Shown here piece after piece: positions 17,978 through 36,581 of a stretch of DNA of 64,000 nt (the stretch's first letter is position 1; each line of letters starts with the position of its first letter). Origin of the DNA: a virus. The DNA lies in the IMG/VR virus record IMGVR_UViG_3300044655_001596, positions 13,319 to 77,318 of that record; one strand, written 5' to 3'. The position numbers and the translations under genes are program-made. The notes under the pieces were generated by a model that was not told the origin of the DNA, made no database searches, and worked only from the letters and a program-made list of their open reading frames with translations.

Positions 17978-19480
17978 ATGATATTTGGATTTGCTATTCT
18001 CGCCACCGCATTGTTGTTAAGCATGGTGGCTGCTTATTACTCAGTAGCCGGATTGGTGGCCATATTTTCTGCGGCGACCATTCCGGTTATCATCATGGGT
18101 GGCAGCCTGGAACTGGGCAAGATTGCAGCCACAGTGTGGTTGCACAACAATTGGCGACGTGCTGGTTGGGCATTCAAGTTTTATCTTGTGCCTGCTGTGG
18201 CGTTTCTCATGATCTTGACTAGTATGGGTATTTTTGGATATCTATCAAAAGCACACAGTGATCAAAGTTTAGTGTCGGGCGATGTACAAAGTAAAATTGC
18301 CATCTATGACGAAAAGATCAAGACAGCAAAGGACAATATAGATGCGAACCGGAAGGCGCTTAGACAGATGGATGAAGCTGTGGACCAAGTTATGGGTCGA
18401 AGCAGTGATGAAAAAGGTGCCGACAAAGCTGTTGCAATCCGACGAGCACAGCAAAAAGAACGTGCAAGACTTCAATCCGAGATCGCGGCCGAACAGAAAA
18501 CAATTGCCGCCGTTAGCGAAGAACGTGCGCCAATCGCTGCCGAGGTTCGTAAGGTTGAAGCAGAAGTTGGACCGATAAAATACATTGCGGCCTTGCTGTA
18601 CGGAGACAACCCTGACAACAATCTGCTAGAACGTGCGGTGCGTTGGATGATCATAATGATTGTGCTGGTGTTTGATCCACTAGCACTAACCTTAATTCTA
18701 GCCGCCAACAAACAGTTTGAATGGGCACGACAAGGCACCGGAGGTTTTGTACACGACGAGCCCAAGTACGAGGCCGACGATGGTCCTTTAACTGACCAAC
18801 AAGTTGATCAACTCAACAAATCTGTTGAAGTGCTTAAAACAGACCCGCACCCACCAGGCTGGATGTTTGACAAGTTTCCTTATCTACAGGCTGGCGCGGC
18901 CATGTTCTTCAAAGACGTCAAACCCATGCCGGCTCAGTCTGACAATGACCAAGCGGCCATGAACATTGTTGCAGAACCTCCTGGTATAGAAACACGCCCA
19001 TTTACTCCTGACGAAATAGCGGCGCTGGAGGCGGCGGATCACGAAGATGAAGAGGATGATGCACTCAAAGCTGCCATTAGACAATGGAAAGCTGCCAACC
19101 CCGACGATACCTTGAAGAACCAACGTTTCAAATTGATGCGGGGAGAAATTGCTGAATTACCTTGGATGGGCTTGTTGGCTGACAATGAATCAAGAAAAGA
19201 AATAAACAGTGGGTTTGGCACACAGTTTCCACCACATGCCGAACGTGGCGATACCTTTGTAAGAGTTGACCGCCTGCCCACAGTGGTCTATAAGTACAAT
19301 GGTAAAGACTGGATAGAAGTTGACAAAAATCTAACAGACAGTTATACTTACGATATTGCTTATATTGATCACTTGATAGAGCGCATTGCATCTGGCGAAT
19401 ATGATGCTGAACTATTGAGTGAAATCGAGCGTGAGCAAGTGTCCCAACGTTTACAATCAAATACAAATACAAACACATGA
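17978..19480 (+). CDS. membrane protein with long coiled coil
   Basis: 3 N-terminal TM helices, coiled coil, 4th TM (VFDPLA), soluble tail; TAAATA box upstream; stop overlaps clpX start. Confidence 0.8.
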   Translation: MIFGFAILATALLLSMVAAYYSVAGLVAIFSAATIPVIIMGGSLELGKIAATVWLHNNWRRAGWAFKFYLVPAVAFLMILTSMGIFGYLSKAHSDQSLVSGDVQSKIAIYDEKIKTAKDNIDANRKALRQMDEAVDQVMGRSSDEKGADKAVAIRRAQQKERARLQSEIAAEQKTIAAVSEERAPIAAEVRKVEAEVGPIKYIAALLYGDNPDNNLLERAVRWMIIMIVLVFDPLALTLILAANKQFEWARQGTGGFVHDEPKYEADDGPLTDQQVDQLNKSVEVLKTDPHPPGWMFDKFPYLQAGAAMFFKDVKPMPAQSDNDQAAMNIVAEPPGIETRPFTPDEIAALEAADHEDEEDDALKAAIRQWKAANPDDTLKNQRFKLMRGEIAELPWMGLLADNESRKEINSGFGTQFPPHAERGDTFVRVDRLPTVVYKYNGKDWIEVDKNLTDSYTYDIAYIDHLIERIASGEYDAELLSEIEREQVSQRLQSNTNTNT

Positions 19481-20694
19481 AATCAAATGATCAAATCACA
19501 TCCTGCAGTTTTTGTGGAAAACACAAAGATGCAGTGGCTAAACTTATTGTAGGTGAAGGTGTTGCCATATGCAATGAGTGTGTGGAACTATGTGAAACTT
19601 TGCTGAAAGATGAAAATTTTGCCGGCACAGTCAGCCCTCCTGTTGTGATGGACCCTGAACACATAAAAAATCATCTAGATCAGTATGTGATTGGCCAGGA
19701 TCGTGCCAAACAGGTACTGAGCGTGGCAGTGGTAAATCATTACAAACGCATTAGTAATCCGGGAACTGATACTGAGATTGAAAAGTGTAACATTCTCATG
19801 CTTGGCCCAACGGGGTCGGGCAAAACATTGTTGGCACGTAGTGTAGCACGTTACTTGGATGTACCGTTCGTGATTGCCGATGCCACAAGTCTTACTGAAG
19901 CAGGTTATGTAGGCGACGACGTTGAGAGCTTGATCTCTAGATTGTTTGCCGCATCGGGCGGTGACATCGCCAAAACACAGCGCGGCATTGTGTTCATTGA
20001 CGAAATTGACAAAATCAGTCGCCGCAGTGAAAGTGCTTCAATCACACGAGATGTGTCAGGAGAAGGTGTACAACAGGCCTTGCTTAAACTGGTAGAAGGC
20101 ACCAAGTGCAGAGTCACTCCCACAGGAAATCGCAAGCATCCTTCAGGTGACATGATTGAGATTGATACCACTAACATCTTGTTTATTGCTGGTGGTGCGT
20201 TCGTGGGTCTTGATGCAGTGGTAAAAAATCGTGTGCGTGGAACTTCGATTGGTTTCAGTGCAAAAGTAAAAGACGACACAGAAACACACCTAGACCAAGT
20301 CACACCAGAAGACTTGATCAAGTTTGGTATGATTCCAGAGTTTGTGGGTCGTTTCCCTAGCTGGGTAGCACTCAACGAACTCAACAAAGAAGATTTGATC
20401 CGTATCTTGCTGGATGTCAAACACAGTTACATTGCACAATACTCTTGGTTGTTTGAACAAGACAAAGTAGAACTAGAATTCAGTGCAGAAGCCTTGGAAA
20501 TGATTGCAGATCGCACTATTCTAAACAAAACTGGTGCTAGGGGTTTGCACTCAGAGCTAGAACGTGTGTTACTCCCCCATATGTTTTATTTGGCCCGTTA
20601 TCGTAGGGAAGGAGTAAACCGCGTGTTTATTGATGCAGATCAGGTAAATACCCCTACAGAACTAAAGGAAGCAAATGGAAAAGCTAAGGGGTAG
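19477..20694 (+). CDS. clpX: ATP-dependent Clp protease ATPase subunit ClpX
   Basis: C4 zinc finger [20 protein letters not shown] pore loop, DEIDK, RKH loop, IGF loop, GARGL. Confidence 0.97.
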
Positions 20695-20899
20695 ATCAGT
20701 ACTGGTCACAGATGGTAACGTAGACAAAGCTCTACGTAAATTCAAAAAGAAAATTCAAACATCGGGCATCTTAGATGATGTTCGAGCCAAAGAGTTTTAC
20801 GAAAAACCCACTACAGAACGCAAACGCAAAAAGTCAGCGGCGCAAAATCGTTGGCGCAAAAAACTAGCCGAACAGGCTTTGCCCAAAAAACTTTATTGA
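20675..20899 (+). CDS. rpsU: ribosomal protein bS21
   Basis: [11 protein letters not shown]...[14 protein letters not shown]. Confidence 0.93.
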
Positions 20900-20929
20900 T
20901 AATGGGTTTTCGTGTATAATAAATAACTG

Positions 20930-20989
20930 TGTAGTGCCCATAGTGGGGCTACATCTAAGTCATCTTGCTTATAAAGGAGAAAACAAATG
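20930..20989 (+). promoter_or_regulatory. ROSE-like RNA thermometer in hsp20 leader
   Basis: 5' hairpin TGTAG..CTACA, then TCTTGCTT-ATA-AAGGAGA pairing the SD with a bulged G (U(U/C)GCU motif). Confidence 0.65.
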
Positions 20990-21445
20990 ACAAAAACTCT
21001 CACCCTTCGTAGTTTCGACATTCCCGCACTCACCAAATTTGGTATCGGTTTCGATAACATGTTTGATGAACTCATGCGTGTGAGTACTCAACAATCCTCA
21101 ACCAACTACCCGCCCTACGATATTGTACAAATCAATGACGACGAGTACATGATCAGTGTGGCTGTGGCCGGTTTTGGGCATGACAACCTTACTGTGACCA
21201 AGGACAAAAACTTCTTGATTATTGAAGGCAAGCACAGTCGTGAAACTGTGGAGAATGACGATGCCACTGCAAAATATTTGCACAAAGGTATTAGTGAAAG
21301 AAGTTTCCGCAGAGAATTCCAACTTGCGGATCATGTGGAAATTAGTAATGCTCACCTTGAACTAGGTATTCTCAGCGTTCACTTGCGACGTGAAGTGCCC
21401 GAAGAAGCCAAGCCAAAGACTATTGCTATCACATACACTTCCTAA
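20987..21445 (+). CDS. small heat-shock protein (Hsp20/IbpA)
   Basis: IGFD, NYPPYDI, AVAGF, YLHKGI, PEEAKPK. Confidence 0.95.
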   Translation: MTKTLTLRSFDIPALTKFGIGFDNMFDELMRVSTQQSSTNYPPYDIVQINDDEYMISVAVAGFGHDNLTVTKDKNFLIIEGKHSRETVENDDATAKYLHKGISERSFRREFQLADHVEISNAHLELGILSVHLRREVPEEAKPKTIAITYTS

Positions 21446-21502
21446 TATAATAGTGTAAATACAGTAGGGACGCGGTGTCCCTACTGCTAACAAGGAAACA
21501 AA

Positions 21503-21814
21503 ATGGCACAAAGCGAAACTAAAACTAGAATCAAACCCTTAGAATCTGTGCAAGAGCCGCCCTTGTACCGTGTGGTCTATCTCAATGACAATCAAACCAC
21601 GTATGAATTTGTGGTAGAGACTTTGATTGAATACTTTGACTACACCGCAGAAACCGCAGAACAAATCACAATAGACATCCATGATGCGGGATCAGCTGTG
21701 GTAGCAGTGCTGCCATACGAGATTGCTGAACAAAAAGGTGTGGAAGTGACCATGCTGGCACGAGCACAAAGTTATCCACTGCAAATCAAACTAGAACCAG
21801 AACCTGTTGGTTAA
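21503..21814 (+). CDS. clpS: ClpS N-degron adaptor
   Basis: PPLYRVVYLNDNQTTYEFVV, IHDAG, EIAEQK, YPL. Confidence 0.93.
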   Translation: MAQSETKTRIKPLESVQEPPLYRVVYLNDNQTTYEFVVETLIEYFDYTAETAEQITIDIHDAGSAVVAVLPYEIAEQKGVEVTMLARAQSYPLQIKLEPEPVG

Positions 21815-24192: not shown

Positions 24193-25431
24193 ATGAAGAA
24201 AATTGGATTTATTGGTATCGGCAAACTGGGACTCGACTGCGCGGAAGTTATGGCAGAGAAGCACGAAGTCAGAGGTTACGATATTTACCCGCGTACCAGC
24301 GACTCGGTAAAAGTTTGCGATATTGATGAATTGGTCAATGAAAGCGAATGGATTTTTATTGCAGTACCCACTCCACATGCTGAAGGCTACGATGGCTCGG
24401 TGCCCAGCTCACACATGGAACCACGTGACTTTGGACATGACGCTGTGATCAGTGCAATCAACAATGTCAACAAGTACGCAAAGTCACCCAAGAAAGTTGT
24501 GTTGATCTCCACAGTATTACCCGGCACCACACGCCGCAAGTTTTATCCACTGCTAGACAAGAGTCATCAGTTCTTGTACAACCCTTATCTAATTGCCATG
24601 GGCAGTGTGAAGTGGGACATGGTCAACCCTGAGATGGTCATGATTGGTACAGAGGATGGCAACCCCAATGCACTAGCAGGCGAGTTGATCGATTTGTACA
24701 AGACCATGATGGTAAACGATCCTCGCTATGAGATTGGCACCTGGGACGAATGTGAAGCAATGAAGATTTTCTACAACACATTCATTAGCGCAAAAGTTGG
24801 TCTTGTGAACATGATTCAAGACTTTGCACTGCGCATTGGCAACATCAATGTTGACGTGGTTACAGATGCCTTGGCACGCTCGACCATGCGTATCATGGGC
24901 CCCAAGTACATGACCGCAGGTATGGGCGATGCAGGCGCTTGCCATCCACGTGACAACATTGCCTTGCGTTGGTTGGCCAAAGAATATGACATTGGCTACG
25001 ACTTGTTTGACACAGTGATGCATGCTCGAGAAATTCAAGCCAAGAACCTTGCCATGTTTCTAGTTGAACAGGCTAAACAACATGGCATGAGCATTGTGAT
25101 TCATGGCAAAGCCTACAAGCCCGATGTTGAATATTGTATTGGATCATACTCTACTCTAGTAGGACACTATGTTAAACAAGCAGGCTTTGGCGTAAGATAC
25201 CTTGATCCCCTGGCAGATGATCCTGCAGAAGTTATTACAGAACTGGCAGGTCCTGCGGTGATATTGTGGGCACACAATCGCAAGATCACTTATGAGTACA
25301 CCGGTGATCAACCTGACACGTTGCCGTATTGCCCAATCCCACATGGTAGTGTAGTGGTTGATCCATGGCGTAAACTTCCACAGATTGAGAATTTGACTGT
25401 GGTACATTATGGCAACACACGAAATTCTTAA
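24193..25431 (+). CDS. UDP-glucose/GDP-mannose 6-dehydrogenase family protein
   Basis: GIGKLG Rossmann motif, AVPTP, STVLPGT, KIFYNTF, GACHPRD catalytic Cys, AYKP. Confidence 0.92.
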   Translation: MKKIGFIGIGKLGLDCAEVMAEKHEVRGYDIYPRTSDSVKVCDIDELVNESEWIFIAVPTPHAEGYDGSVPSSHMEPRDFGHDAVISAINNVNKYAKSPKKVVLISTVLPGTTRRKFYPLLDKSHQFLYNPYLIAMGSVKWDMVNPEMVMIGTEDGNPNALAGELIDLYKTMMVNDPRYEIGTWDECEAMKIFYNTFISAKVGLVNMIQDFALRIGNINVDVVTDALARSTMRIMGPKYMTAGMGDAGACHPRDNIALRWLAKEYDIGYDLFDTVMHAREIQAKNLAMFLVEQAKQHGMSIVIHGKAYKPDVEYCIGSYSTLVGHYVKQAGFGVRYLDPLADDPAEVITELAGPAVILWAHNRKITYEYTGDQPDTLPYCPIPHGSVVVDPWRKLPQIENLTVVHYGNTRNS

Positions 25432-25927
25432 ATATCATATTCCCAAGTTTTGGGATGACGAGTTTAAGCAACTCAACTACGTCAACGAAGAATTCAATGA
25501 CGCGGAAAGCCTGGAGCGTTGGACAGCTCAGGGTTATGCCAACCGATTCACCGGGGACATGTGCGACATGCGCAGTCCACAACCAAGTTGGAATCAGCAG
25601 TTTGTCAATATCTATAGTGAACTGGGTTGGAAAGACATTGGTACCAGTTACTATAGAATGGGCACAGGTACTATTCTTCCAACTCACGGTGACTTGTATC
25701 TTCGCTATGTTGACCTGTTCAATCTCCGGGGGCAAGAACAACGCATACGCAGAGCCATTGTGTTCCTAGAAGACTGGAAACCCGGACACTATTTTGAAGG
25801 CAACAACGATGCCAAGGTCAATTGGCGAGCAGGAGATGTAGTTGAGTGGCAGTACGATGCGCCACACTTGGCTGCCAATCTTGGGCTAGAACCAAGGTAC
25901 ACATTACAAATCACAGGATGGGTATGA
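25409..25927 (+). CDS. 2OG-Fe(II) oxygenase / cupin-fold protein
   Basis: PTHGD...PHLAAN (HxD..H), RYTLQITG. Confidence 0.75.
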   Translation: MATHEILKYHIPKFWDDEFKQLNYVNEEFNDAESLERWTAQGYANRFTGDMCDMRSPQPSWNQQFVNIYSELGWKDIGTSYYRMGTGTILPTHGDLYLRYVDLFNLRGQEQRIRRAIVFLEDWKPGHYFEGNNDAKVNWRAGDVVEWQYDAPHLAANLGLEPRYTLQITGWV

Positions 25928-26835
25928 TCAACAGTCGCGACGAGTGGAGTCCACTAAAACGCATAGTAGTAGGAGATGCTACTCATGCCAACTGGCCTGT
26001 ACTGGATCCTGTATTCTCCAAAGAGAGTGAAAAGACCACCTGGAAAGAAACACCTGTTCCTCGCGGGCCTGTTCCACAACGAATCATAGATGAAGCAAAC
26101 GAAGACTTGGATGGTCTGGCAACGACTCTGATGAGCCTGGGCGTAGAAGTGTTACGTCCGGATCCACTCAACTTCCAAGTCCACGATGGCATGTACAACT
26201 ACTGCCCGCGTGATCGTTTGTTGGTGTACGGCAACAGCATTGTGAACCCTGCCATGATGTATCCTTGTAGAGATATGGAACTGCAATGCTATCATGACAT
26301 TGTGGACGAAGCAGAACACTACCACTTCATGCCCAGACATGAAGGATTTGTATTGGATGCAGCCAACGTATGCAGACTGGGCGATCAGATGTTGTTTTTA
26401 GAATCCGCATCAGGTAACCGCAAAGCCTACAATTGGTTGTGTGATGTGTTCCCAGATGTCAAAATTGAATTGTGCAATTTTTATGCAGGGGTACATATTG
26501 ATTCTACCATTGTGCCCTTGCGTGAAGGCCTGGTGTTACTCAACAGTTCGCGTGTGAACTTTGATACGGTACCACAAGTGTTTGATGGTTGGCACAAGGT
26601 TTGGGTAAACGAAGTGGTGGCACAAGGTTTTCACGAGTACCCATATGCATCAAAATGGATAGCAATGAACATGTTGGTAGTTGATCCACACACGGTCATC
26701 TGCGACAAGAATCAAACTGAATTAATTCGAACACTCCGAAGTTACCAATTTGAAGTGATACCTTTGGAATTACGCCATTCACGCACTTTGGGCGGTGGTT
26801 TCCATTGTGTTACACTAGACCTAGAACGCGGTTGA
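25924..26835 (+). CDS. amidinotransferase (glycine/inosamine-phosphate amidinotransferase family)
   Basis: EWSPLK, YCPRD, DAAN, HIDST, GGGFHCVT catalytic Asp-His-Cys. Confidence 0.92.
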   Translation: MINSRDEWSPLKRIVVGDATHANWPVLDPVFSKESEKTTWKETPVPRGPVPQRIIDEANEDLDGLATTLMSLGVEVLRPDPLNFQVHDGMYNYCPRDRLLVYGNSIVNPAMMYPCRDMELQCYHDIVDEAEHYHFMPRHEGFVLDAANVCRLGDQMLFLESASGNRKAYNWLCDVFPDVKIELCNFYAGVHIDSTIVPLREGLVLLNSSRVNFDTVPQVFDGWHKVWVNEVVAQGFHEYPYASKWIAMNMLVVDPHTVICDKNQTELIRTLRSYQFEVIPLELRHSRTLGGGFHCVTLDLERG

Positions 26836-26866
26836 CTAATATTCAAAAATGCTGTATAATTACAGC
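26832..26866 (+). promoter_or_regulatory. sigma70 promoter of uvsE with a palindrome over the -10 box
   Basis: TTGACT-17-TATAAT; GCTGTA-TAAT-TACAGC. Confidence 0.65.
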
Positions 26867-27907
26867 ATGACTACACCTATTACTCCTCGTATCGGCTTTT
26901 GTTGCAAATGGCTCAATGATCCCACGGAATGTGGTGGTATGAAAGTCAATGCCAAAGACCGTGATCTAAACGGGCGTTCCACTACCATGCGCTGGCTTCG
27001 TGAGCACAAGGACGAAGCTGAACAGCGTCAGTGGGACATTATGAATCACAATGCGTCAGCGGCTGTGAAGATGATTGAGCGTGTGGGCACATTGCCTCCT
27101 GAACGGCGCATGGTGCGTCTAGGCAGTGAGATGCTACAAGGCTACACTGAGAAAGATTGGATTGACTGGTGGCAACGACGTGAAATTCAAGATCACTGCG
27201 AACAAATTTTTAAACCGGTGGGCGATACTGCTCGGAGGCTTGGCGTTCGGCTTTCCTTCCATCCAGGGCAATTTTGTGTACTAGCAAGTGAGAGTGATGA
27301 GATTGTGGAACGATCCATCCTCGAGTTTGAATACCATGCTGATATGGCACGGTGGATGGGCTACGGCGAGACCTGGCATGATCATGGATTCAAGATCAAC
27401 GTACACTTGTCAGGCAAAGGCGGCCCTGCTAAGTTTTTGCAAACACTCAAGCGATTGAGTCCCGAGGCTCGCAACCTCATAACTATCGAAAATGATGAGA
27501 TGACAAATGGATTGGACACTACTTTGGCTGTGGCTCAGCATGTGGCTCTTGTGTTGGACGTACACCACCACTGGATCAACACCGGCGAATACATCGAACC
27601 GCAGGACGTTCGTACAAGTCGGGTTATTGACAGCTGGCGCGGTGTTCGTCCTGCAATGCATTTTAGTACTAGTCGCGAGGACATTTTGGTCGACCATGTT
27701 CGAACAGTTCGACCAGACCTTGCTGAACTTCTTGCTAGAGGTTTTAAAAAGCAGAAGCTCCGAGCACACAGTGACTTCTGTTGGAACTCAGCTGTAAACG
27801 ACTGGGTCTTGGGCTTTAGTGACCAGTTCGATATACAAGTAGAAGCCAAGGGCAAGAACTTGGCAAGTGAACAACTTTATGAACAATATACTTCTCAACA
27901 TCTTTGA
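26867..27907 (+). CDS. uvsE: UV damage endonuclease UvsE/UVDE
   Basis: RIGFCC, RLSFHPGQF, IENDE, LDVHHH, AHSD, VEAKGK. Confidence 0.93.
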   Translation: MTTPITPRIGFCCKWLNDPTECGGMKVNAKDRDLNGRSTTMRWLREHKDEAEQRQWDIMNHNASAAVKMIERVGTLPPERRMVRLGSEMLQGYTEKDWIDWWQRREIQDHCEQIFKPVGDTARRLGVRLSFHPGQFCVLASESDEIVERSILEFEYHADMARWMGYGETWHDHGFKINVHLSGKGGPAKFLQTLKRLSPEARNLITIENDEMTNGLDTTLAVAQHVALVLDVHHHWINTGEYIEPQDVRTSRVIDSWRGVRPAMHFSTSREDILVDHVRTVRPDLAELLARGFKKQKLRAHSDFCWNSAVNDWVLGFSDQFDIQVEAKGKNLASEQLYEQYTSQHL

Positions 27908-28166
27908 TTGGATACGCAGTGACTACAGAACTAACCCGTTTAGGTTCGTCGTGGAAGTACTGGCTTGGGCTGTGTCTATTGGGTGCAGTATTACGATGGC
28001 TGCCACTGTACCTAATCCCCCTCTCGTTGTACTTTACCCTATTTGGATTGCTGGTTGTGCTATGTACGCTTGGGCTGCTTGGACTCGTAAATCGTTTGGT
28101 ATGTTGGCCAACTACATTCTTTTAGTCAGCATCGATACTGTGGGTTTGCTACGCATGATTTTGTAA
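27879..28166 (+). CDS. small 3-TM membrane protein
   Basis: Hydrophobic helices; overlaps uvsE end. Confidence 0.7.
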   Translation: MNNILLNIFDWIRSDYRTNPFRFVVEVLAWAVSIGCSITMAATVPNPPLVVLYPIWIAGCAMYAWAAWTRKSFGMLANYILLVSIDTVGLLRMIL

Positions 28167-28182
28167 CAAAATTGTAACATGA
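28161..28182 (+). promoter_or_regulatory. Pho box
   Basis: TTGTAACAAAA-TTGTAACATGA 11-bp direct repeat directly upstream of pstS. Confidence 0.75.
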
Positions 28183-28219
28183 TTTGGCCTAAATACTTGT
28201 GAACTACAAAGGAGAAATC

Positions 28220-29221
28220 ATGTTCAAACACTTACTGACATTACTGGCCGCTTTCACAGTGGTTACAGCACAAGCACAGTCGACCATCAACGGTGGTGGA
28301 GCAACATTCCCAGCTCCTCTCTATTCAAAGTGGGCAGAAGCCTATCACAAAGCCACTGGCATTCGTATCAACTATCAGAGTGTGGGTTCGGGCGCCGGTA
28401 TTAGAATGACTGAAGCACGAACAGTGACATTTGGTGCTAGTGATATGCCGCTTACAGATGACCGATTGGCCGCCCTGGGTGTGTTTCAATTCCCCACATG
28501 TATTGGCGGTGTGGTGCCTGTTATCAACATAAAAGGTATTGAGCCTGGTTCCATGCGTTTGACTGGCCCGGTGATAGCCGATATCTTCTTGGGCAAAATT
28601 AAAAAGTGGAACGATCCTGCAATCACAGCATTAAATCCCACGCTCAAACTGCCAGATCAAGAAATTACAGTAGTTCGCAGAGCCGACGGGTCAGGCACCA
28701 CATTTATTTGGACCAACTATCTCAGCAAGGTCAGCCCAGAGTTCAAAGCCACCATAGGCGAAGGCACAGCAGTTAACTGGAAGGTGGGCGCCGGCGGTAA
28801 AGGCAACGAAGGTGTTGCCGCCATGGTTCGACAACTGCCAGGATCCCTGGGTTATGTTGAATATGCATACGTTACACAAACCAAAATGAACTGGGTCAGC
28901 GTACAAAACTCAGCTGGTACTTGGGTAGCACCTACTGAAGATGCTTTTAAGGCAGCCGCCGCTAATGCTGATTGGAATCGCACCTACTTTCAAATCTTAA
29001 CAGATCAAAAGGGTCGCGATGCTTGGCCCATTAGTGGTGCTACATTTGTTCTGGTACATCTCAAGCCAGAAAAACCTGAAGATCTCAAAGCAGCGTTGAC
29101 ATTTTTTGATTGGGCATTTACCAACGGTGACAAAATGGCTGATGACCTAGATTATGTTACATTGCCGGCGGCAGTCAAAACCAAGATTCGTTCAGACTGG
29201 AAACGTCTAGGATTGAATTAA
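28220..29221 (+). CDS. pstS: phosphate ABC transporter substrate-binding protein PstS
   Basis: GATFPAPLY, GSGAG, FGASD, RADGSGTT, GKGNEGV, WPI; signal peptide. Confidence 0.97.
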   Translation: MFKHLLTLLAAFTVVTAQAQSTINGGGATFPAPLYSKWAEAYHKATGIRINYQSVGSGAGIRMTEARTVTFGASDMPLTDDRLAALGVFQFPTCIGGVVPVINIKGIEPGSMRLTGPVIADIFLGKIKKWNDPAITALNPTLKLPDQEITVVRRADGSGTTFIWTNYLSKVSPEFKATIGEGTAVNWKVGAGGKGNEGVAAMVRQLPGSLGYVEYAYVTQTKMNWVSVQNSAGTWVAPTEDAFKAAAANADWNRTYFQILTDQKGRDAWPISGATFVLVHLKPEKPEDLKAALTFFDWAFTNGDKMADDLDYVTLPAAVKTKIRSDWKRLGLN

Positions 29222-29226
29222 ATCGA

Positions 29227-29263
29227 CCACAACGATAGAGTGGCGCTGGAACTCGTAACCAGC
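29227..29263 (+). ncRNA. candidate two-hairpin/pseudoknot RNA element in pstS 3' UTR
   Basis: CCAC/GTGG and GCTGG/CCAGC stems with complementary loops ACGA/TCGT. Confidence 0.35.
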
Positions 29264-29266
29264 AGG

Positions 29267-29294
29267 TACCCCAAAATTTTTGGGGTATTTTTTT
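29267..29294 (+). terminator. intrinsic terminator after pstS
   Basis: TACCCCAAAA/TTTTGGGGTA + T run. Confidence 0.85.
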
Positions 29295-29334
29295 GTCTGT
29301 GTTTAATGATTTGCGCACAGGCTTAAATATCTAT

Positions 29335-29499
29335 ATGAGTTGGTTCAAACGAATTCCACACCGTTATCCCCCAGCCCCGCCTGCCTCTGCTCCGCATAGA
29401 ACTAGTCCTGCTACTGATCGGGCACTAGAAGAGTCCAAGTCGCTGGGTCCAAAAACCCGTAAGAAAACTGTCAAAAAGCCCCCACTAAATAAGGCATGA
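29335..29499 (+). CDS. small basic Pro-rich protein
   Basis: TAAATA box 5 nt before ATG; overlaps next gene. Confidence 0.45.
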   Translation: MSWFKRIPHRYPPAPPASAPHRTSPATDRALEESKSLGPKTRKKTVKKPPLNKA

Positions 29500-30170
29500 A
29501 ACCCACCATAGCCCTATTCCTGCACGACCCCAAGTGTAGTGTACAAAGCGGTAATGGGCTCATGCGAGCCCTGGGCGATCACTACAAGTTCAAAATATTC
29601 GGGCGCAATCAGCTGGAAGACACATTTTTTGAAGATGTAGACATGGTTGCTGTGCCCGGCGGTATTGGTGACGCAGACACCTTTGACGGGCTGTTCAAAC
29701 ACAGTGCCGAACGTGTGAGGCAATTTGTTGACGGTGGTGGCCGGTATCTAGGAATCTGCATGGGCGCATACTGGGCAGGAAGCGCATATCTTGACATCTT
29801 GGATGGGGTAGATGCAGTACAATATATCCGCCGCCCGGGAACAGACACACGCAGACCACATGCCAAAAACTTGCCTGTGTTATGGCAAGATCGTTATGGA
29901 AGTGTTGAGCCTTGGAAGATGTTTTTTTATGATGGGTGTGCGCTGGTGGGAGACCGTACCAAGTTCAAGACTCTGGCCACGTACATGAATGGCGACGCCA
30001 TGGCAATTATACAAAACAACATTGGCCTAATAGGATGTCATCCTGAAAGTGAACAATTCTGGTACGACAGTTACTCATGGATGCGTGGTCGATATCACAG
30101 AGGACAACACCATACCCTGTTGTTGGACTTTGTAGATCAGTTAATGCACACGAAGCCGAGCAAGCCTTAA
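29496..30170 (+). CDS. BPL-N / class I glutamine amidotransferase-like protein
   Basis: VPGG, YLGICMGAY nucleophile elbow, GCHPE. Confidence 0.85.
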   Translation: MKPTIALFLHDPKCSVQSGNGLMRALGDHYKFKIFGRNQLEDTFFEDVDMVAVPGGIGDADTFDGLFKHSAERVRQFVDGGGRYLGICMGAYWAGSAYLDILDGVDAVQYIRRPGTDTRRPHAKNLPVLWQDRYGSVEPWKMFFYDGCALVGDRTKFKTLATYMNGDAMAIIQNNIGLIGCHPESEQFWYDSYSWMRGRYHRGQHHTLLLDFVDQLMHTKPSKP

Positions 30171-30848
30171 CAGTCTAAACAGGCTGAGCCACATCCAGCC
30201 TATGTCAAACTCCCACCACTTTTTAGAGAGGCGGGCACTCGCTGGTTCCAGGTGGTGGTTGTTGTGCAACTCTTCGCCACCAATAACAATACCCCAAGGG
30301 CTAATATTGCGACTATGATCTTTAGTTTTGCCATTACGATATCCTATCCAATGTCCTACACCGTTGATGACTCCAGCTGCCCAGAAAGGAATCCACAGCA
30401 TCTGAATGCCCCAAATCAACACTCCCCACCAACCAAATATCAAGACATCTAGCATAAAGAGAATGCCAATGCCAAGTCTAGAGTGAGGCTGGTATACGTG
30501 AAGCTCCATCCAATCAGCAGGAGTACCAACACCATATGTATTAACCATATCCGTATCTTTTGATGCTTCATGATATAACCCTGCTCCTTTAAAAAACACT
30601 CTTTTGATTCCATACACATGTGGTGAGTGTGGATCTCCATCCGCATCGCTAAATCTATGATGTTTGCGATGTATGGCCACCCACTGTTTGGTTACCATGC
30701 CTGTGGTCAACCATAACCAGGCTCGCATAAAGTGTTCAAGTATGGGATGAAATTCTATGCCTCGATGTGCTTGGCCACGATGCAAATACAACGTGACACA
30801 AACGATAGTAATGTGTGTCATTGCCAGTGTTGCGATTAGTTCTGTCAT
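30141..30848 (-). CDS. membrane fatty-acid (acyl-CoA/lipid) desaturase
   Basis: His boxes HRGQAH, HRKHH, HNNHH; WWEFDIGW. Confidence 0.93.
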   Translation of the reverse strand: MTELIATLAMTHITIVCVTLYLHRGQAHRGIEFHPILEHFMRAWLWLTTGMVTKQWVAIHRKHHRFSDADGDPHSPHVYGIKRVFFKGAGLYHEASKDTDMVNTYGVGTPADWMELHVYQPHSRLGIGILFMLDVLIFGWWGVLIWGIQMLWIPFWAAGVINGVGHWIGYRNGKTKDHSRNISPWGIVIGGEELHNNHHLEPASARLSKKWWEFDIGWMWLSLFRLLRLARLRVH

Positions 30849-31291: not shown

Positions 31292-31570
31292 ATGTTTACA
31301 GCAGACGCATTCATCGACACCGTTCAAACCGGTAAAAAAACTTGGGTCAACACTTTTGTGACCAATGAGGCCATGAAAGACGCAATGATCAAATTCGTTG
31401 ACAACCAAGCCGACTACACCAAAAAAGCCATCAAGGCTACCACAGACGCCGCAACCACTGTTGCCAGCGAAACTGTCAAAGCTGTGCAAGAAGCTACCAA
31501 ATTTGACTATGTGAAATTTGGCGAAGGAATCATGAAGGCTTACACCGCCCAGTCATCTAAATCAAAGTAA
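31292..31570 (+). CDS. phasin-like amphipathic helical protein
   Basis: Ala/Lys/Thr-rich helical 92 aa; PhaR-like box upstream. Confidence 0.6.
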   Translation: MFTADAFIDTVQTGKKTWVNTFVTNEAMKDAMIKFVDNQADYTKKAIKATTDAATTVASETVKAVQEATKFDYVKFGEGIMKAYTAQSSKSK

Positions 31571-31645
31571 TACTCTAGTACTACTTTTTGACAGCCCCAG
31601 ATTTTGGGGCTTTCTCTTGACCAATAATTCGTCATCTGCTATAAT
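31564..31645 (+). promoter_or_regulatory. operator + terminator + sigma70 promoter cassette
   Basis: AAAGTAATACTCTAGTACTAC; AGCCCCA/TGGGGCT hairpin; TTGACC(31617)-17-TATAAT. Confidence 0.85.
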
Positions 31646-31654
31646 TACTGCATT

Positions 31655-31807
31655 ATGAAGCCAATCCATTTTGTTTTGCAGGCTCCCCGAGAGCGTCGAC
31701 ATCGTGCCCTGTTTGATCAGGACTTGCCGTTCCGCGGTCGTGTGGAGCGGCCAAAGACCGAGTATCGGCGCAGACCCAAACACAAGAATCGCGAGCAACA
31801 AGAATGA
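31655..31807 (+). CDS. ArfA-like microprotein (50 aa, not in ORF track)
   Basis: RALFDQDLPFRGRVERPKTEYRRRPKHKN resembles the ArfA core [28 protein letters not shown]. Confidence 0.55.
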   Translation: MKPIHFVLQAPRERRHRALFDQDLPFRGRVERPKTEYRRRPKHKNREQQE

Positions 31808-32049
31808 AACTTATTGCACCTCTATTGCTGTCGTTGTTGGTGGGTTGCGCTTCGCAATCTTACACACCGCCACCTTCTGTTGCGGCCATGCCCAATGACT
31901 GTGCCAACCGGCAGGCAATCATCAGTTGGTTAGAAACACAAGCCCGAGTTCCTCGTCAAGCATTTGAAAGTGAGAAGCACTATGAACAAACACGCTCGCA
32001 GATTCGCCACCGTTTGTGGCATGTGCGTTATAACTGTCAGCCTGTTTAG
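31804..32049 (+). CDS. lipoprotein
   Basis: Lipobox LVGC; additional Cys pair. Confidence 0.75.
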   Translation: MKLIAPLLLSLLVGCASQSYTPPPSVAAMPNDCANRQAIISWLETQARVPRQAFESEKHYEQTRSQIRHRLWHVRYNCQPV

Positions 32050-32305
32050 TGGATGTGCAACTCATCCAGATGTCACACGCATACCCATGGCCACAATAGA
32101 TCTCAATCACTTTCAAGTTGATTGTAGGATCAAAGATCAACAGGTGGCCATGTTGCAAGCCATGCGCCAAACACCCAACGAACAATTTGGCAGTCGCATG
32201 CGAGCCATGAATCCTTTTGTTTGGACCAGTGATCATGATGTGGCATTCAACAATCCCAACAAGTACATCAACTACCATCTCAACAATTTGAGGTATTGCC
32301 CATGA
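31982..32305 (+). CDS. lipoprotein
   Basis: Lipobox FSGC; DC...YC Cys pair like the preceding gene. Confidence 0.65.
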   Translation: MNKHARRFATVCGMCVITVSLFSGCATHPDVTRIPMATIDLNHFQVDCRIKDQQVAMLQAMRQTPNEQFGSRMRAMNPFVWTSDHDVAFNNPNKYINYHLNNLRYCP

Positions 32306-32862
32306 AACGACTGCTAATTGCCGCATTGATACCTGCCAGTGTACTGGCGTCCGAGTGTGTGTTGCAGGATCGAACCGTGACTGCCAGTGCAGTTCGCATT
32401 GAAGAACGATCTGGTCTTCGCGAAGATGTTGTTCCTGCACCCGACGGAGGCCGTAGATGCATGGTCAATTTTAAAGCACGAGTTGGTGCCACTTGGTATT
32501 GGGCACAAGGCCATTATGATTGGCCCGGCGATCGCCCACGTGGTGAAGCCTGTGCTGTGGCTGTGTCGCGAGCCGAAGATTCAGTTCGAACACAAGTGGC
32601 GCCCAGTCATGTGCGTAGTGAAAAGGTAATGGTGTGTTCGGACCAACGCGATCTGGAACTGCTTCGCAGTACCAATCCCGGCAGCGTAGGACGACTGCAC
32701 CAATTTCGTCCGCATCCAGACTTTCCGCGAGAGTTTTGGCACAATGGTGCTCGCTGTCGCTGGTTTTTGGATAGCACTTTTCGACATCAAGATGTCTACA
32801 CCTACCAAGGCGTAATTTGCCAAATCCAAAAGGATCAATGGGTAGTGGTTGACAAGTTTTGA
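32302..32862 (+). CDS. secreted Cys-rich protein
   Basis: Signal peptide MKRLLIAALIPASVLA; six Cys. Confidence 0.7.
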   Translation: MKRLLIAALIPASVLASECVLQDRTVTASAVRIEERSGLREDVVPAPDGGRRCMVNFKARVGATWYWAQGHYDWPGDRPRGEACAVAVSRAEDSVRTQVAPSHVRSEKVMVCSDQRDLELLRSTNPGSVGRLHQFRPHPDFPREFWHNGARCRWFLDSTFRHQDVYTYQGVICQIQKDQWVVVDKF

Positions 32863-32911
32863 TCATTTGTGTATAATAGAAGTATCGTGTAACTAACCTG
32901 AAAGGTTTTGT

Positions 32912-33730
32912 ATGTTAATCAAACGTTTATCTGTCCTAGCAGTGGCCACAAGCCTTGTGGCATGTGCAAGCACAACGGCACAAAAAGCCGAAACTGTGGC
33001 TCCCGCTCCGGTGACCCGTGTGGTTGAAATAGCACCGCAAGTGGCGCCTGCACCACACCCTTATGCCTTGCCTGAACGGCAAGTTCGCACAGTGGTACGA
33101 GCTCCTGCTTGGTTCGTGAACTTGCCCGAAGATACCGCAGACATGACCTTTGCTGTGGGCACTGCAACATCAACGGATGAGCAAATGGCCTACGACAAAG
33201 CACGTATGGCTGCAGAGCGCAAACTGGTTGAGCAGATGTATGCTAGAATTACCACACAGACCAACAGCTTCAAAGCTGATCGTGGCAGTGCAACAATTGA
33301 AAACTACCAGCAAGTCACACGCAAAAATGCACGTGGTGAGCTGAGTGGTGCTCAACGAGTAGACAGTCAAGTCACACATGATGGGCAATACTACAAGGTC
33401 TATGTACTATTGCGATTGCCTACAGGCGCCAACAACACAATGCAAACACGTCGTGATCAACAACGTCTGCAACGTGAAGCAGAAATCCGCGGTCGCGCCG
33501 CAGAACGCAACATGGACGCAACCGAAGCTCGTGATGCGCAGATTGAGCAAGAAAATACTCGCTCACTTGAGCGTAGTCTTGAACCCCAGAGCAAAGTTAC
33601 CCCTGTAACTGTACCCACAACGTCTGGAGAACTTAAACTGCTGGATGTTGACAACGCTGAATATCGGCAAAAAAGGGCAGAAGCACTACAAAAACCTGGT
33701 GCTGTAGTAGGACAAACAGTAGTTAGATAA
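32912..33730 (+). CDS. LPP20-like lipoprotein
   Basis: Lipobox LVAC; PAWF...AVGTATS...AYDKARMAA...YKVYVL; own promoter TTGACA(32849)-17-TATAAT. Confidence 0.75.
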   Translation: MLIKRLSVLAVATSLVACASTTAQKAETVAPAPVTRVVEIAPQVAPAPHPYALPERQVRTVVRAPAWFVNLPEDTADMTFAVGTATSTDEQMAYDKARMAAERKLVEQMYARITTQTNSFKADRGSATIENYQQVTRKNARGELSGAQRVDSQVTHDGQYYKVYVLLRLPTGANNTMQTRRDQQRLQREAEIRGRAAERNMDATEARDAQIEQENTRSLERSLEPQSKVTPVTVPTTSGELKLLDVDNAEYRQKRAEALQKPGAVVGQTVVR

Positions 33731-33789: not shown

Positions 33790-34365
33790 ATGACCATTGA
33801 AACCACACAAACAATTGAGCAGACTCACACCCAAGCCTTGGCCGACAACGGTATGTATGTTTTCATGGGCGAGGTTGACAATGACAACATCAAACCTATA
33901 ATTGAATGGATCCTGCACGAGAACTTTGTGACCAAGAGAAAACGCAAAGAACTCTTGCTGATGATTTGCTCAGAAGGTGGGGACATGAGTTCGGCATTTG
34001 CCTTGATTGATGTCATGCGCAGTTCTGTCATTCCAATCAAAGTTGTGGGACTGGGGCAGATTGCCAGTGCTGGATTATTGATCTTTTTAGCAGGAACACC
34101 GGGTCGTAGAACGCTCACTCCCAATACATCAATCATGAGTCACCAGTATGCCTGGGGCAGTGATGGCAAACATCACGAGCTGTTGGCCACAATTAAAGAG
34201 TTTGAGCTAACACAAACCCGTATGGTACAGCACTACATAGATTGTACAGGGTTAGATGAAGCCCAAATCAAGCAACACCTGTTGCCACCGCATGATGTTT
34301 ATTTAGGTGCAGACGATGCCTTGCGTTTGGGCATTTGCGACCATATCAGCCAACTGTCTCGTTAA
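33790..34365 (+). CDS. ClpP-like protease (divergent paralog)
   Basis: SEGG, GQIASAG (Ser), MSHQ (His), HDVYL (Asp); TATAAATA upstream. Confidence 0.9.
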   Translation: MTIETTQTIEQTHTQALADNGMYVFMGEVDNDNIKPIIEWILHENFVTKRKRKELLLMICSEGGDMSSAFALIDVMRSSVIPIKVVGLGQIASAGLLIFLAGTPGRRTLTPNTSIMSHQYAWGSDGKHHELLATIKEFELTQTRMVQHYIDCTGLDEAQIKQHLLPPHDVYLGADDALRLGICDHISQLSR

Positions 34366-35936
34366 CCTTTTTTCCGACGTCCCAACGTCTTTTCGTCAAA
34401 GTCGGGCTGTGTGGCTTTCCTTGATGCTTTGGCGCCTGGGCCAGTCAATCTAGGCTCCTTGCCCACCTGATTCAAATCATCAGTATCGAGTTTTGCTGGC
34501 TCTGCTTGACCTGCTGGCATGTTGCCGGGCTCGGTGATATCTTCCCCGCCGGGTGAAAACTCCACACTCATTTTACCCTTGATTTCACCTGCTGAACCCT
34601 TGGTCTTGAGCTTGACCTGACCGCTGATCTTGGCTGGCCAAAATGCTTCGGTTACCAGTCGGTCGCCTTTGACTTTGCTGTATAGTTGCACAAAGTTGTA
34701 GCCTAAACTTTCAATCAAGGCCGCTCGCAATTCTGGCACAGCACGATCAGTGTTTACAGCTCGCATCACATCGCTAATGGTAGCATACCATGCTTTGCCG
34801 CCATCAGTTGCAGTGCCGTCTTTGACTTTGTCACTGAGTTGCTGGTTGAACTGTCTCATCACACTAGCAGGTAAAGATTGGCCAGTTTTAAAACTTCTTT
34901 CGTATTCGGCGACCGAGTCTGGTGTAAACGGAATCAAAGGATGATAGGCCTTGGGAACCTTGTTGGAATTCAACATGTATAGATAGTTCATCATGGCAAA
35001 TGGCTGAGTAAACTGTCCCAATGTGTCATCTTGTGCAATATCCAAGAATTCGGCAGCATCGGGGTATTTTTCTCTGACTTCGTTGGGTAACTTCATGCTG
35101 CCTAAACTGGGCGGAGCACCTGTTCCCGCGGCCTTACTGGAAATCTTAATCGCATGACCGTTTTCGTCATTAACCACACTAAAACTGTCGGCCAAGGGAT
35201 TGTTGCTGGCCTTGGGAAAGTACATGATCAAGTCATCAAAATTAGCGCCCACAAATTCTTCAAACTCTTGCTTACTACCACGAATAAACGGAACAGTACC
35301 GCGAACCAGTCCTAACGCACCAAGATACTCGCTGGCGTACAACTCAATTGCTTTGATTTCATCCTTTGATAGATTGGACGGAAACATCGGAATCTGTCCG
35401 TCATTGACCTGTCGAGCCATGTATATCACAGCATCACCAACCTTGCCTAGCTTTTGTAAATCTGGATTGTTGGCCAAGCGATCATACATTTCTGCTGCTG
35501 GGAAACCACCAGCCTGTAGCACAGTGTTCATGCTGTTGCCAAAGTCTTGAATTTCAATGTCTGTTGTGTTGAACACCTGACTGGGTTTGATGCTGATGTT
35601 TTCTGCTTCTTTGCTGCCAAACTCCACGGTTTTCAACAGCTCGGTATTTTTGACTGTGCCACCATCCTTGGTGTTCATGGTTATGGTTTTTTTTGGGCCA
35701 GTTGCAATCCAAGCTGCTACACTATTGACTTCTGAAGGATCCACAATGACTTCGCCGCCACTGACCAAGGTAAATGGTGAACCAGTTTGAACCTTGTGCA
35801 AAAATAGATCACCTCTAGAAAAAGGCTTCTTTGTAGCAGGATTGATCACTGAACTCATCTTGTTTGGAGGGATTTCACTGGCAGCCAAGTTGGCTTCAGT
35901 CAGTACATTGTCGAGTAAATTGAGTAGGTCACGCAT
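34362..35936 (-). CDS. putative PD-(D/E)XK-type nuclease with N-terminal leader
   Basis: YASEYLG...NPLADSF...IKISSK; N-terminus [15 protein letters not shown]. Confidence 0.5.
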
Positions 35937-35987
35937 TGCTATTTTCCAAGAATAATGTTATACTTATGCTTTGAACAAGGAGACCCC

Positions 35988-36581
35988 ATGCCAAATCTAG
36001 TACCAATTGTGCTTGAACAAACCGCCAAAGGCGAACGCAGTTATGATATCTACAGCCGATTGCTCAAAGACCGTGTGATCATGCTGGACACAGAAGTATC
36101 GGAACACACAGCCAGTTTGCTGGTAGCACAGATGCTGTTTTTGGAGAGTGAAAACCCTGACAAAGATATCTCCCTATATATCAATTCGCCAGGCGGATCG
36201 GTCACAGCAGGCATGGCCATCTATGACACCATGCAGTTTATCAAGTGTGATGTGCAGACCATTGTGATGGGTCAGGCCTGTAGTATGGGAAGTCTGCTAA
36301 GTACAGCAGGAGCCGCAGGCAAGCGCACGATCCTGCCCAATGCCCGACACATGATTCACCAACCATCAGGTGGTGCTCGTGGGCAAGCTACAGACATCCA
36401 AATCCAAGCACGAGAAATCCAAAAGATGAAAGAGTATCTCACCACAATCTATGTCAAGCACAACTCAGCAGGTAAAACCTATGATGAATTTGCTCGTGAC
36501 ATGGAACGTGATTTCTTTATGAGTGCTCAAGAAGCCTTGGACTATGGACTAGTAGATAAAATTATCAACAAACGAGAATGA
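35988..36581 (+). CDS. clpP: ATP-dependent Clp protease proteolytic subunit ClpP
   Basis: [38 protein letters not shown]; AAGGAG RBS. Confidence 0.97.

Follow-up and report, generated by a model that had tools for sequence, protein, structure and literature searches.

The gene at positions 31655-31807 of a giant lake phage sequence encodes a 50-aa protein which, judged by profile comparisons, is a distant relative of the bacterial ribosome-rescue factor ArfA, and this homology is well supported. The sequence analyzed here (the window) comprises 64,000 nucleotides of a 77-kb IMG/VR virus record with a completeness of 22% by CheckV estimate. We consider it moderately probable that the protein acts as an ArfA-type factor, made constitutively and independently of tmRNA, which brings host RF2 to non-stop ribosomes. 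From its sequence features the family appears as a divergent, sub-threshold variant of ArfA with a new N-terminus, loop-less and without tmRNA control, which is fixed in a clade of tmRNA-bearing giant phages.

The arfA-like gene in the phage genome

The gene and its immediate surroundings comprised the following features (positions are those of the window).

31593..31611 (+), terminator-like hairpin found by consensus scan, with an 8-bp stem followed by a T-rich tail
31617..31645 (+), sigma-70-type promoter with TTGACC (31617-31622), a 17-nt spacer and the extended -10 box TGcTATAAT
31646..31654 (+), gap of 9 nt between the -10 box and the ATG, without Shine-Dalgarno site
31655..31807 (+), arfA-like ORF, ATG to TGA, 50 aa
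31726..31751 (+), in-ORF hairpin with an 11-bp stem, codons 24-33 (LPFRGRVERP)
31804..32049 (+), lipoprotein-like gene, 81 aa (MKLIAPLLLSLLVGC...), whose ATG overlaps the stop codon of the arfA-like ORF (ATGA)

The translation of the ORF is MKPIHFVLQAPRERRHRALFDQDLPFRGRVERPKTEYRRRPKHKNREQQE, and its TGA at 31805-31807 follows seven residues past the KH motif. Coordinates and translation were the same as in the preliminary description of this DNA, including the start of the ORF 9 nt past a TATAAT. That description had called the gene hidden and below the cutoff of the ORF track. The latter is true for that particular track only, since JGI already calls and names close homologues, and the word hidden was an overstatement given that homologues are named ArfA by JGI and that an ArfA of 51 aa is annotated in the cultured phage J2-1.

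A search of 5.8 billion proteins yielded 81 homologues of 49-52 aa with 58-94% identity, encoded on contigs of up to 352 kb, and many of them carried the JGI name 'stalled ribosome alternative rescue factor ArfA'. We found the gene in 22 IMG/VR viral loci, and comparison with these loci gave dN/dS values of 0.04-0.25 with synonymous sites near saturation. A phasin-like gene was located directly 5' of the arfA-like gene in all 22 loci. The fuller gene order in relatives was phasin-like gene, arfA-like gene, lipoprotein genes, ClpP, a minus-strand gene and a second ClpP, and this synteny was kept in relatives including genomes of 349 kb (estimated 97% complete) and 343 kb (estimated 99%). The 81 homologues, the dN/dS values and the conserved neighbours in the 22 viral loci show that the ORF is not a chance frame but a real gene under purifying selection. 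In a clade of lake phages with genomes of roughly 345 kb it belongs to the core genes, and the phage was recurrent across many lake-water metagenomes. No match to cultured phages was obtained by megablast of the region, and a pattern scan with close-family patterns gave no confirmed relatives among 185,579 species genomes.

Promoter, leader and downstream genes

The promoter that the preliminary description had placed 5' of the ORF proved to be a sigma-70-type phage promoter. Its TATAAT is located at 31640-31645, its hexamers match the consensus at 11 of 12 positions, and the TG of the extended -10 box is present. With one mismatch allowed, the promoter pattern occurred in 20 copies in the window, all on the plus strand, versus 0.19 expected from shuffles, and the promoter is therefore a member of the phage's own host-type family (repeated sequence TTGACC(A/G)ATAAT..TTTGCTATAAT). 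These 20 sites span window positions 10195-58143 (e.g. 11440, 26832, 38481, 43293 and 52967). Two promoter classes could be distinguished, one with a leader of ~30 nt containing AAGGAG, and one with the ATG 6 nt past the -10 box, for which leaderless mRNAs are predicted in the case of a 346-aa UvdE-like, a 141-aa and a 150-aa gene. For the arfA-like mRNA, too, no leader or one of only ~3 nt is predicted from the presumed transcription start site, and the gene can be assigned to the near-leaderless promoter class.

Of the 22 loci, 18 (14 distinct sequences) had a TTGAC-type -35 and a TATAAT/TACAAT -10 box directly 5' of the gene, the four loci outside this count being L001, L019, L020 and L021. 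The spacing between -10 box and ATG was 6-9 nt in 16 of these 18 loci, and the other two (L006 and L008) had a leader of 25 nt. The gene copies in L001, L019 and L020 are part of an operon and lie behind an ordinary GGAG (Shine-Dalgarno) site, a placement indicating that the coding sequence is selected for the protein and not merely as a leader. Upstream of the promoter, the terminator-like hairpin is predicted to close the unit of the phasin-like gene (31292-31570), and a comparable hairpin was present 5' of the promoter in relatives L007, L009 and L016.

Coupled translation with the next gene is likely because of the ATGA overlap of the arfA-like stop with the following ATG. This overlap was found in most relatives, even where the downstream gene was a different one. 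In the window the region 31804-33730 contains four successive genes for secreted or lipoprotein-like proteins, three of them with lipobox-type N-termini ending in C. They showed weak matches to LPP20 and to the 17-kDa antigen and were kept in many, not all relatives. In one metagenomic protein (P0098, 82 aa) the ArfA-like core was fused to an N-terminus resembling the one encoded by the window's lipoprotein gene at 31964-32305 (..CVITASLFSGCATEP..DLNHYRIDC), which is probably due to a rearrangement, or to an assembly or frameshift artefact, in a relative. Further upstream, window positions 24193-30848 encode host-like metabolic genes, among them genes for a UDP-glucose-dehydrogenase-like protein, a UvdE UV endonuclease, a PstS-like phosphate-binding protein, a BPL_N/GATase-like protein and, on the minus strand, a fatty-acid desaturase.

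Homology to ArfA at the profile level

The single ORF gave no match to Pfam ArfA (PF03889; gathering threshold 25.5 bits) at E <=10, no NCBIfam match and no phmmer match in the PDB, and no Pfam ArfA match was found anywhere in the 77-kb record. Sub-threshold Pfam ArfA matches were obtained for 1 of 42 close homologues and for 9 of 114 superfamily representatives. From these two sets we built profiles A1 (42 close homologues) and A2 (114 superfamily representatives). The superfamily itself, as defined by an exhaustive HMM search of 1.84 billion representatives, formed 148 clusters at 50% identity and was almost entirely metagenomic. When searched against all PDB sequences, profile A1 matched only six distinct ArfA sequences, with E values of 0.0015-0.018 and in colinear alignment, and A2 again matched ArfA only. 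In hhalign comparisons with an enterobacterial ArfA alignment, built from the translated MG1655 arfA and its relatives, A1 and A2 reached probabilities of 90% and 89% (scores 36.6 and 35.2, E ~2e-6). The scores for 100 column-shuffled ArfA alignments were 9.7 +/- 1.9 (maximum 17.6) and those for reversed alignments 9-10. As these controls were far below the real scores, basic composition does not explain the ArfA match, which includes the non-basic residues A, L, F, V, E, Y and H. The nearest Atlas neighbours of one homologue included DUF7230 and ArfA clusters, which we take as a lead only.

The ArfA-likeness claimed in the preliminary description thus holds at the profile level (PDB, hhalign and shuffle control), though the ORF itself lies below the Pfam ArfA threshold. 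Accordingly, the HMM search suggested there as a check failed for the single ORF against Pfam ArfA and succeeded for the family profiles, so that profile similarity, the lack of which had been named as counterevidence, was found. The stretch of ArfA quoted for comparison also agreed with the translated MG1655 arfA.

The hhalign alignment allowed us to place the residues with known roles in E. coli ArfA on the phage protein. A18 aligns with A18 of E. coli ArfA, where the exchange A18T abolishes RF2 activation while binding and RF2 recruitment without hydrolysis are possible (PMC8012679). F26 corresponds to F25, whose hydrophobic contact is held to explain RF2 specificity, and G28-E31 to Q27-E30, which adds a beta-strand to RF2 domain II/IV (PMC8012679). 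Further towards the C-terminus, Y37 aligns with Y39, R39 with R41 and K42-H43 with K44-H45; the basic C-terminus of E. coli ArfA occupies the mRNA channel with the KH motif in a pocket (PMC8012679). Residues A18, F26, R29, R39 and H43 were invariant in the close family and V30, E31, Y37 and K42 were conserved in at least 95%, i.e. the ArfA residues with assigned roles align with invariant or at least 95% conserved phage residues. Across the 148 clusters of the superfamily the channel-binding tail was the most conserved part, with R39 and K42 invariant and Y37 and H43 conserved in ~87-88%.

The AF2 model of the phage protein was extended, with a single short helix at residues 17-20 (pLDDT 83), a pTM of 0.28 and no globular fold, and Foldseek found no structural match to it in the PDB. 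The modelled helix is compatible with the short helix formed by E. coli ArfA residues 15-24 at the decoding centre (PMC8012679) and with a ribosome-bound peptide, a compatibility that proves nothing.

Differences from bacterial arfA

The phage protein can be aligned colinearly, from residue 12 to about residue 50, with ArfA (YhdL) of E. coli and other beta- and gammaproteobacteria (Pfam PF03889; PDB 5MDV, 5U4I, 5H5U, 5MGP and 7OJ0), and both share A18, L19, F25/F26, the RVE strand, Y, R and KH. Its length is also close to that of truncated ArfA, which is active without its last 17-18 residues (PMC8012679). Unlike in ArfA, the N-terminal 17 residues (MKPIHFVLQAPRERRHR) are without counterpart and contain conserved residues of their own (R14 and H16), and P25 is extra. 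The absence of the KGKGS loop noticed in the preliminary description is reflected in the alignment by three missing residues of the KGKGS region. With these three residues gone, the stretch linking the RF2-docking strand to the KH anchor is shorter and could differ in geometry. A further difference from the bacterial ArfA used for comparison is that the protein is phage-borne.

In bacteria, arfA gives rise to a stop-less mRNA, either by an in-frame hairpin that is cut by RNase III or by a terminator. Because it is made from such a message, bacterial arfA is kept low by tmRNA, and ArfA serves as a reserve that comes into play only upon tmRNA failure. In contrast, the phage gene has a stop codon and has neither an RNase III/terminator hairpin nor a hydrophobic C-terminal extension. 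All 22 viral relatives terminate 4-9 residues past KH. No terminator-like site was detected in the ORF by consensus scan, and the fold of the whole ORF was no better than that of shuffles (z = 0.05). Hence the stop-less mRNA, tmRNA repression and hydrophobic extension that characterize bacterial arfA were not recognizable in the phage ORF, and its initial characterization as pre-shortened and stop-terminated was confirmed with regard to the stop codon and to the lack of an arfA-type hairpin or terminator. Owing to the real stop and the missing hairpin and extension, no tmRNA repression is expected for the phage gene.

The hairpin within the ORF (31726..31751) was considered as an arfA-type truncation hairpin and rejected. 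It is the sole stem, is located mid-ORF 5' of the KH anchor, and varied in stability among relatives from -3.4 to -19.5 kcal/mol without compensatory changes. A cut at this stem would take off the essential tail, which makes it an unlikely truncation site.

Related phage proteins and other rescue factors

Among 50,697 cultured-phage records, tblastn returned a single match, to a gene of Pseudoalteromonas phage J2-1 (MF988720.1, ATN93434.1) encoding a stop-terminated protein of 51 aa with the annotation 'alternative ribosome-rescue factor A'. The J2-1 protein scored 41.3 bits on Pfam ArfA (cut-off 25.5), also passed the DUF7230 cut-off, and had 63% identity with the window ORF in an alignment of 30 residues (E 7e-11). 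Judged by these similarities, it represents a bridging sequence between the window ORF and ArfA. Both phage proteins are short and stop-terminated and have the same loop-less spacing (RVERDKTKYRRKKKHKNRE; RVERxKTxYRR). Unlike the window ORF, J2-1 ArfA has kept a canonical N-terminal half and scores above the Pfam ArfA threshold. J2-1 is a 142-kb Ounavirinae phage of a marine gammaproteobacterium, and the ArfA role of its protein is given by annotation alone.

The best direct HMM matches of the ORF tail were to DUF7230 (PF23876; 18.9 bits) and phrog_6310 (E 1.1e-5). The DUF7230 match (E 0.0016) covered residues 28-48 only and stayed below the gathering threshold of 27 bits, and a six-frame search of the record against DUF7230 gave 18.2 bits. 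DUF7230 was matched by 48 of the 114 superfamily representatives, and since J2-1 ArfA passes both cut-offs the DUF7230 and ArfA families overlap. PHROG families 6310 and 2701, like DUF7230, are close to the phage protein; being without known function, none of the three lends it a mechanism.

By analogy, the phage protein may also be compared with BrfA of Bacillus subtilis and ArfT of Francisella tularensis, which are likewise small basic factors. Both occupy the mRNA channel when it is empty and bring in a release factor, the KH motif is shared by BrfA, and both are held to have evolved independently of ArfA (PMC8012679).

Phage ArfA as a kind is already known by annotation, from JGI, from GenBank and from one genome report, that of Citromicrobium phage RXM (PMC8953757). 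A survey of huge phages lists tmRNA, SmpB, RF1/2 and RRF, and ArfA is not mentioned in those of its passages that contain rescue terms (PMC7162821). Among the papers searched, none reported experimental work on a phage ArfA-like protein. What is added here is a composition-controlled homology test, the J2-1 bridge, a map of the key residues, the finding that a permuted tmRNA co-occurs with the gene, and the sampled rarity of ArfA and of the phage-type family in the candidate host order.

tmRNA and Clp proteases

Genes related to proteostasis and translation were encoded on both sides of the arfA-like gene, and a permuted two-piece tmRNA (Rfam RF04321, 97-136 bits) was detected in three relatives (G001, G002 and G003).

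19477-21814 and 33790-36581 of the window, proteostasis/translation set including Hsp20 and ClpS
19477-20694 of the window, ClpX
20675-20899 of the window, bS21-like protein of 74 aa, overlapping the end of ClpX
33790-34365 of the window, divergent ClpP
35955-36581 of the window, canonical ClpP
105139-105495 of G002 (L121), permuted tmRNA (RF04321)
341179-341502 of G001 (L122), permuted tmRNA (RF04321)
286370-286820 of G003 (L123), permuted tmRNA (RF04321)

The tmRNA-bearing relatives have the same synteny, a size of ~300-350 kb and estimated completeness values of 99%, 97% and 81%. The permuted tmRNA adjoins large tRNA clusters in relatives. ARAGORN, which called the tmRNA in G001 and G002, predicted the tag ANDSQFALAA for both, and a beta_tmRNA match of 91.6 bits was obtained in G001. 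The standard tmRNA model RF00023 matched only tRNAs in the relatives, all below the gathering score. Searches of the window and of the 77-kb record gave neither tRNA nor tmRNA, and with an estimated completeness of 22% the absence of a tmRNA from the record says little. None of five relatives encoded a gene for SmpB or for an RF-1-domain protein, and host SmpB and RF2 would therefore be needed for both rescue arms. Between the two ClpP genes of the window we further observed a minus-strand gene for a 524-aa protein without Pfam match.

Candidate hosts and bacterial cousins

The beta-type tmRNA hints at a betaproteobacterial host. A genome-contig scan based on ClpP found matches of 60-66% identity across many phyla, without a signal for a particular host. 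Among 301 sampled genomes of the order containing Undibacterium, three encoded a Pfam ArfA and one a chromosomal member of the phage-type superfamily; weak matches were found in 2 of 400 genomes of the class.

The chromosomal member (L117, 1492-1632, minus strand) encodes 46 aa (E 5.6e-14) and lies in a small, AT-rich genome of the Undibacterium order (G582, ~1.3 Mb), flanked by genes for MarC-like and VIT-like membrane proteins. A nearly identical metagenomic protein (P0162) extends beyond the same point into a hydrophobic tail. A weakly matching cousin was found in bacterial genome G399 (L115, 1432-1635, minus strand) as a frame of 68 aa with a DUF7230 score of 19.6 bits. This frame runs straight past KH into a 22-bp hairpin (z = -5.5), which is the non-stop design of arfA. 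This hairpin supports a rescue role for the wider superfamily, as a single, weakly matching case.

Possible function of the phage protein

As an ArfA-type rescue factor acting on a 70S ribosome that has stalled at the 3' terminus of a broken mRNA, the protein would insert its basic C-terminal tail (KTEYRRRPKH) into the empty mRNA channel, where the KH motif would anchor it. Domain II/IV of host RF2 would gain a beta-strand from the FRGRVE segment, and the region around A18 would let RF2 open and hydrolyse the peptidyl-tRNA. The gene would encode the already-shortened active length (~7 residues past KH) with a stop codon, and a strong host-type promoter would give rise to its nearly leaderless mRNA. 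Shortened length, stop codon and promoter together suggest production regardless of tmRNA activity, and the phage probably makes the ArfA-like protein all the time. We infer ribosome binding, RF2 dependence, the timing of expression and a benefit to the phage.

Conservation across the 148 clusters is strongest in the tail that binds the channel, which would also suit a protein that blocks ribosomes rather than rescuing them. Such a protein would plug the mRNA channel of host ribosomes, be they vacant or non-stop, either on its own or together with unproductive recruitment of RF2 as in ArfA(A18T), and its effect might be to hold ribosomes back, to inhibit host rescue, or to bias ribosomes towards the leaderless mRNAs of the phage. 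Recruitment without hydrolysis has a precedent in ArfA(A18T) (PMC8012679), the ArfA-unrelated N-terminus might fail to activate RF2, and the phage uses several leaderless or near-leaderless genes. However, a pure plug would have no need of A18, F26 and R29-V30-E31, the residues of productive RF2 docking and activation, which vary little or not at all in the close family, and the tmRNA of the clade suggests an investment in rescue and not in blocking. We therefore regard a blocking function as unlikely.

The new N-terminal third, and the presence of a tmRNA without SmpB in the clade, could point to a rescue-type factor with another partner than proposed above. It might act with RF1 as well as RF2, like Francisella ArfT, or with the phage tmRNA and host SmpB, or it might serve other stalls, and small rescue factors sharing only the KH tail are thought to have arisen more than once (PMC8012679). 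Against this, F26 aligns with ArfA F25, the residue held responsible for RF2 specificity, the RVE beta-strand is kept, and nothing in the sequence resembles the globular domain of SmpB, which makes a different partner quite unlikely in our view.

The ArfA likeness might instead be convergent, the product being a small, basic peptide that binds nucleic acids and has no relation to ArfA, or the ORF being mainly a leaderless uORF that loads ribosomes for the lipoprotein genes. This would fit a short, basic protein below Pfam cut-offs and an ATGA overlap kept in most relatives whatever gene comes next, but is highly improbable given an ArfA match far above composition-preserving controls that includes non-basic residues, strong amino-acid conservation while synonymous sites are saturated, and the occurrence of the gene behind Shine-Dalgarno sites in the operons of L001, L019 and L020.

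With the arfA-like gene, the two-piece tmRNA of the clade and the ClpX, ClpS, two ClpP and bS21-like genes of the window, the phage appears to bring both rescue arms. More speculatively, and with low confidence, the giant lake phage clade might carry a complete, self-controlled rescue and clean-up module (ArfA-like protein, two-piece tmRNA and ClpX/ClpS/ClpP). If so, the ArfA-like arm would keep ribosomes available when stalls exceed the capacity of trans-translation, with the excess stalls coming from the infection or from cleavage of mRNA or tRNA by abortive-infection RNases of the host. The arfA-like gene would then serve counter-defence or translation capacity and not be just a borrowed housekeeping gene, and the module would reach hosts which are mostly without canonical ArfA.

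If the proposed ArfA-type function is true, an uncontrolled phage ArfA together with a tmRNA and Clp proteases would mean that large phages handle ribosome stalling themselves. Stalling is expected to rise with the degradation of host mRNA or with defence nucleases that cut mRNA or tRNA. The family would also provide natural minimal ArfA variants, loop-less and with a new N-terminus, for probing what is needed for the recruitment and opening of RF2.
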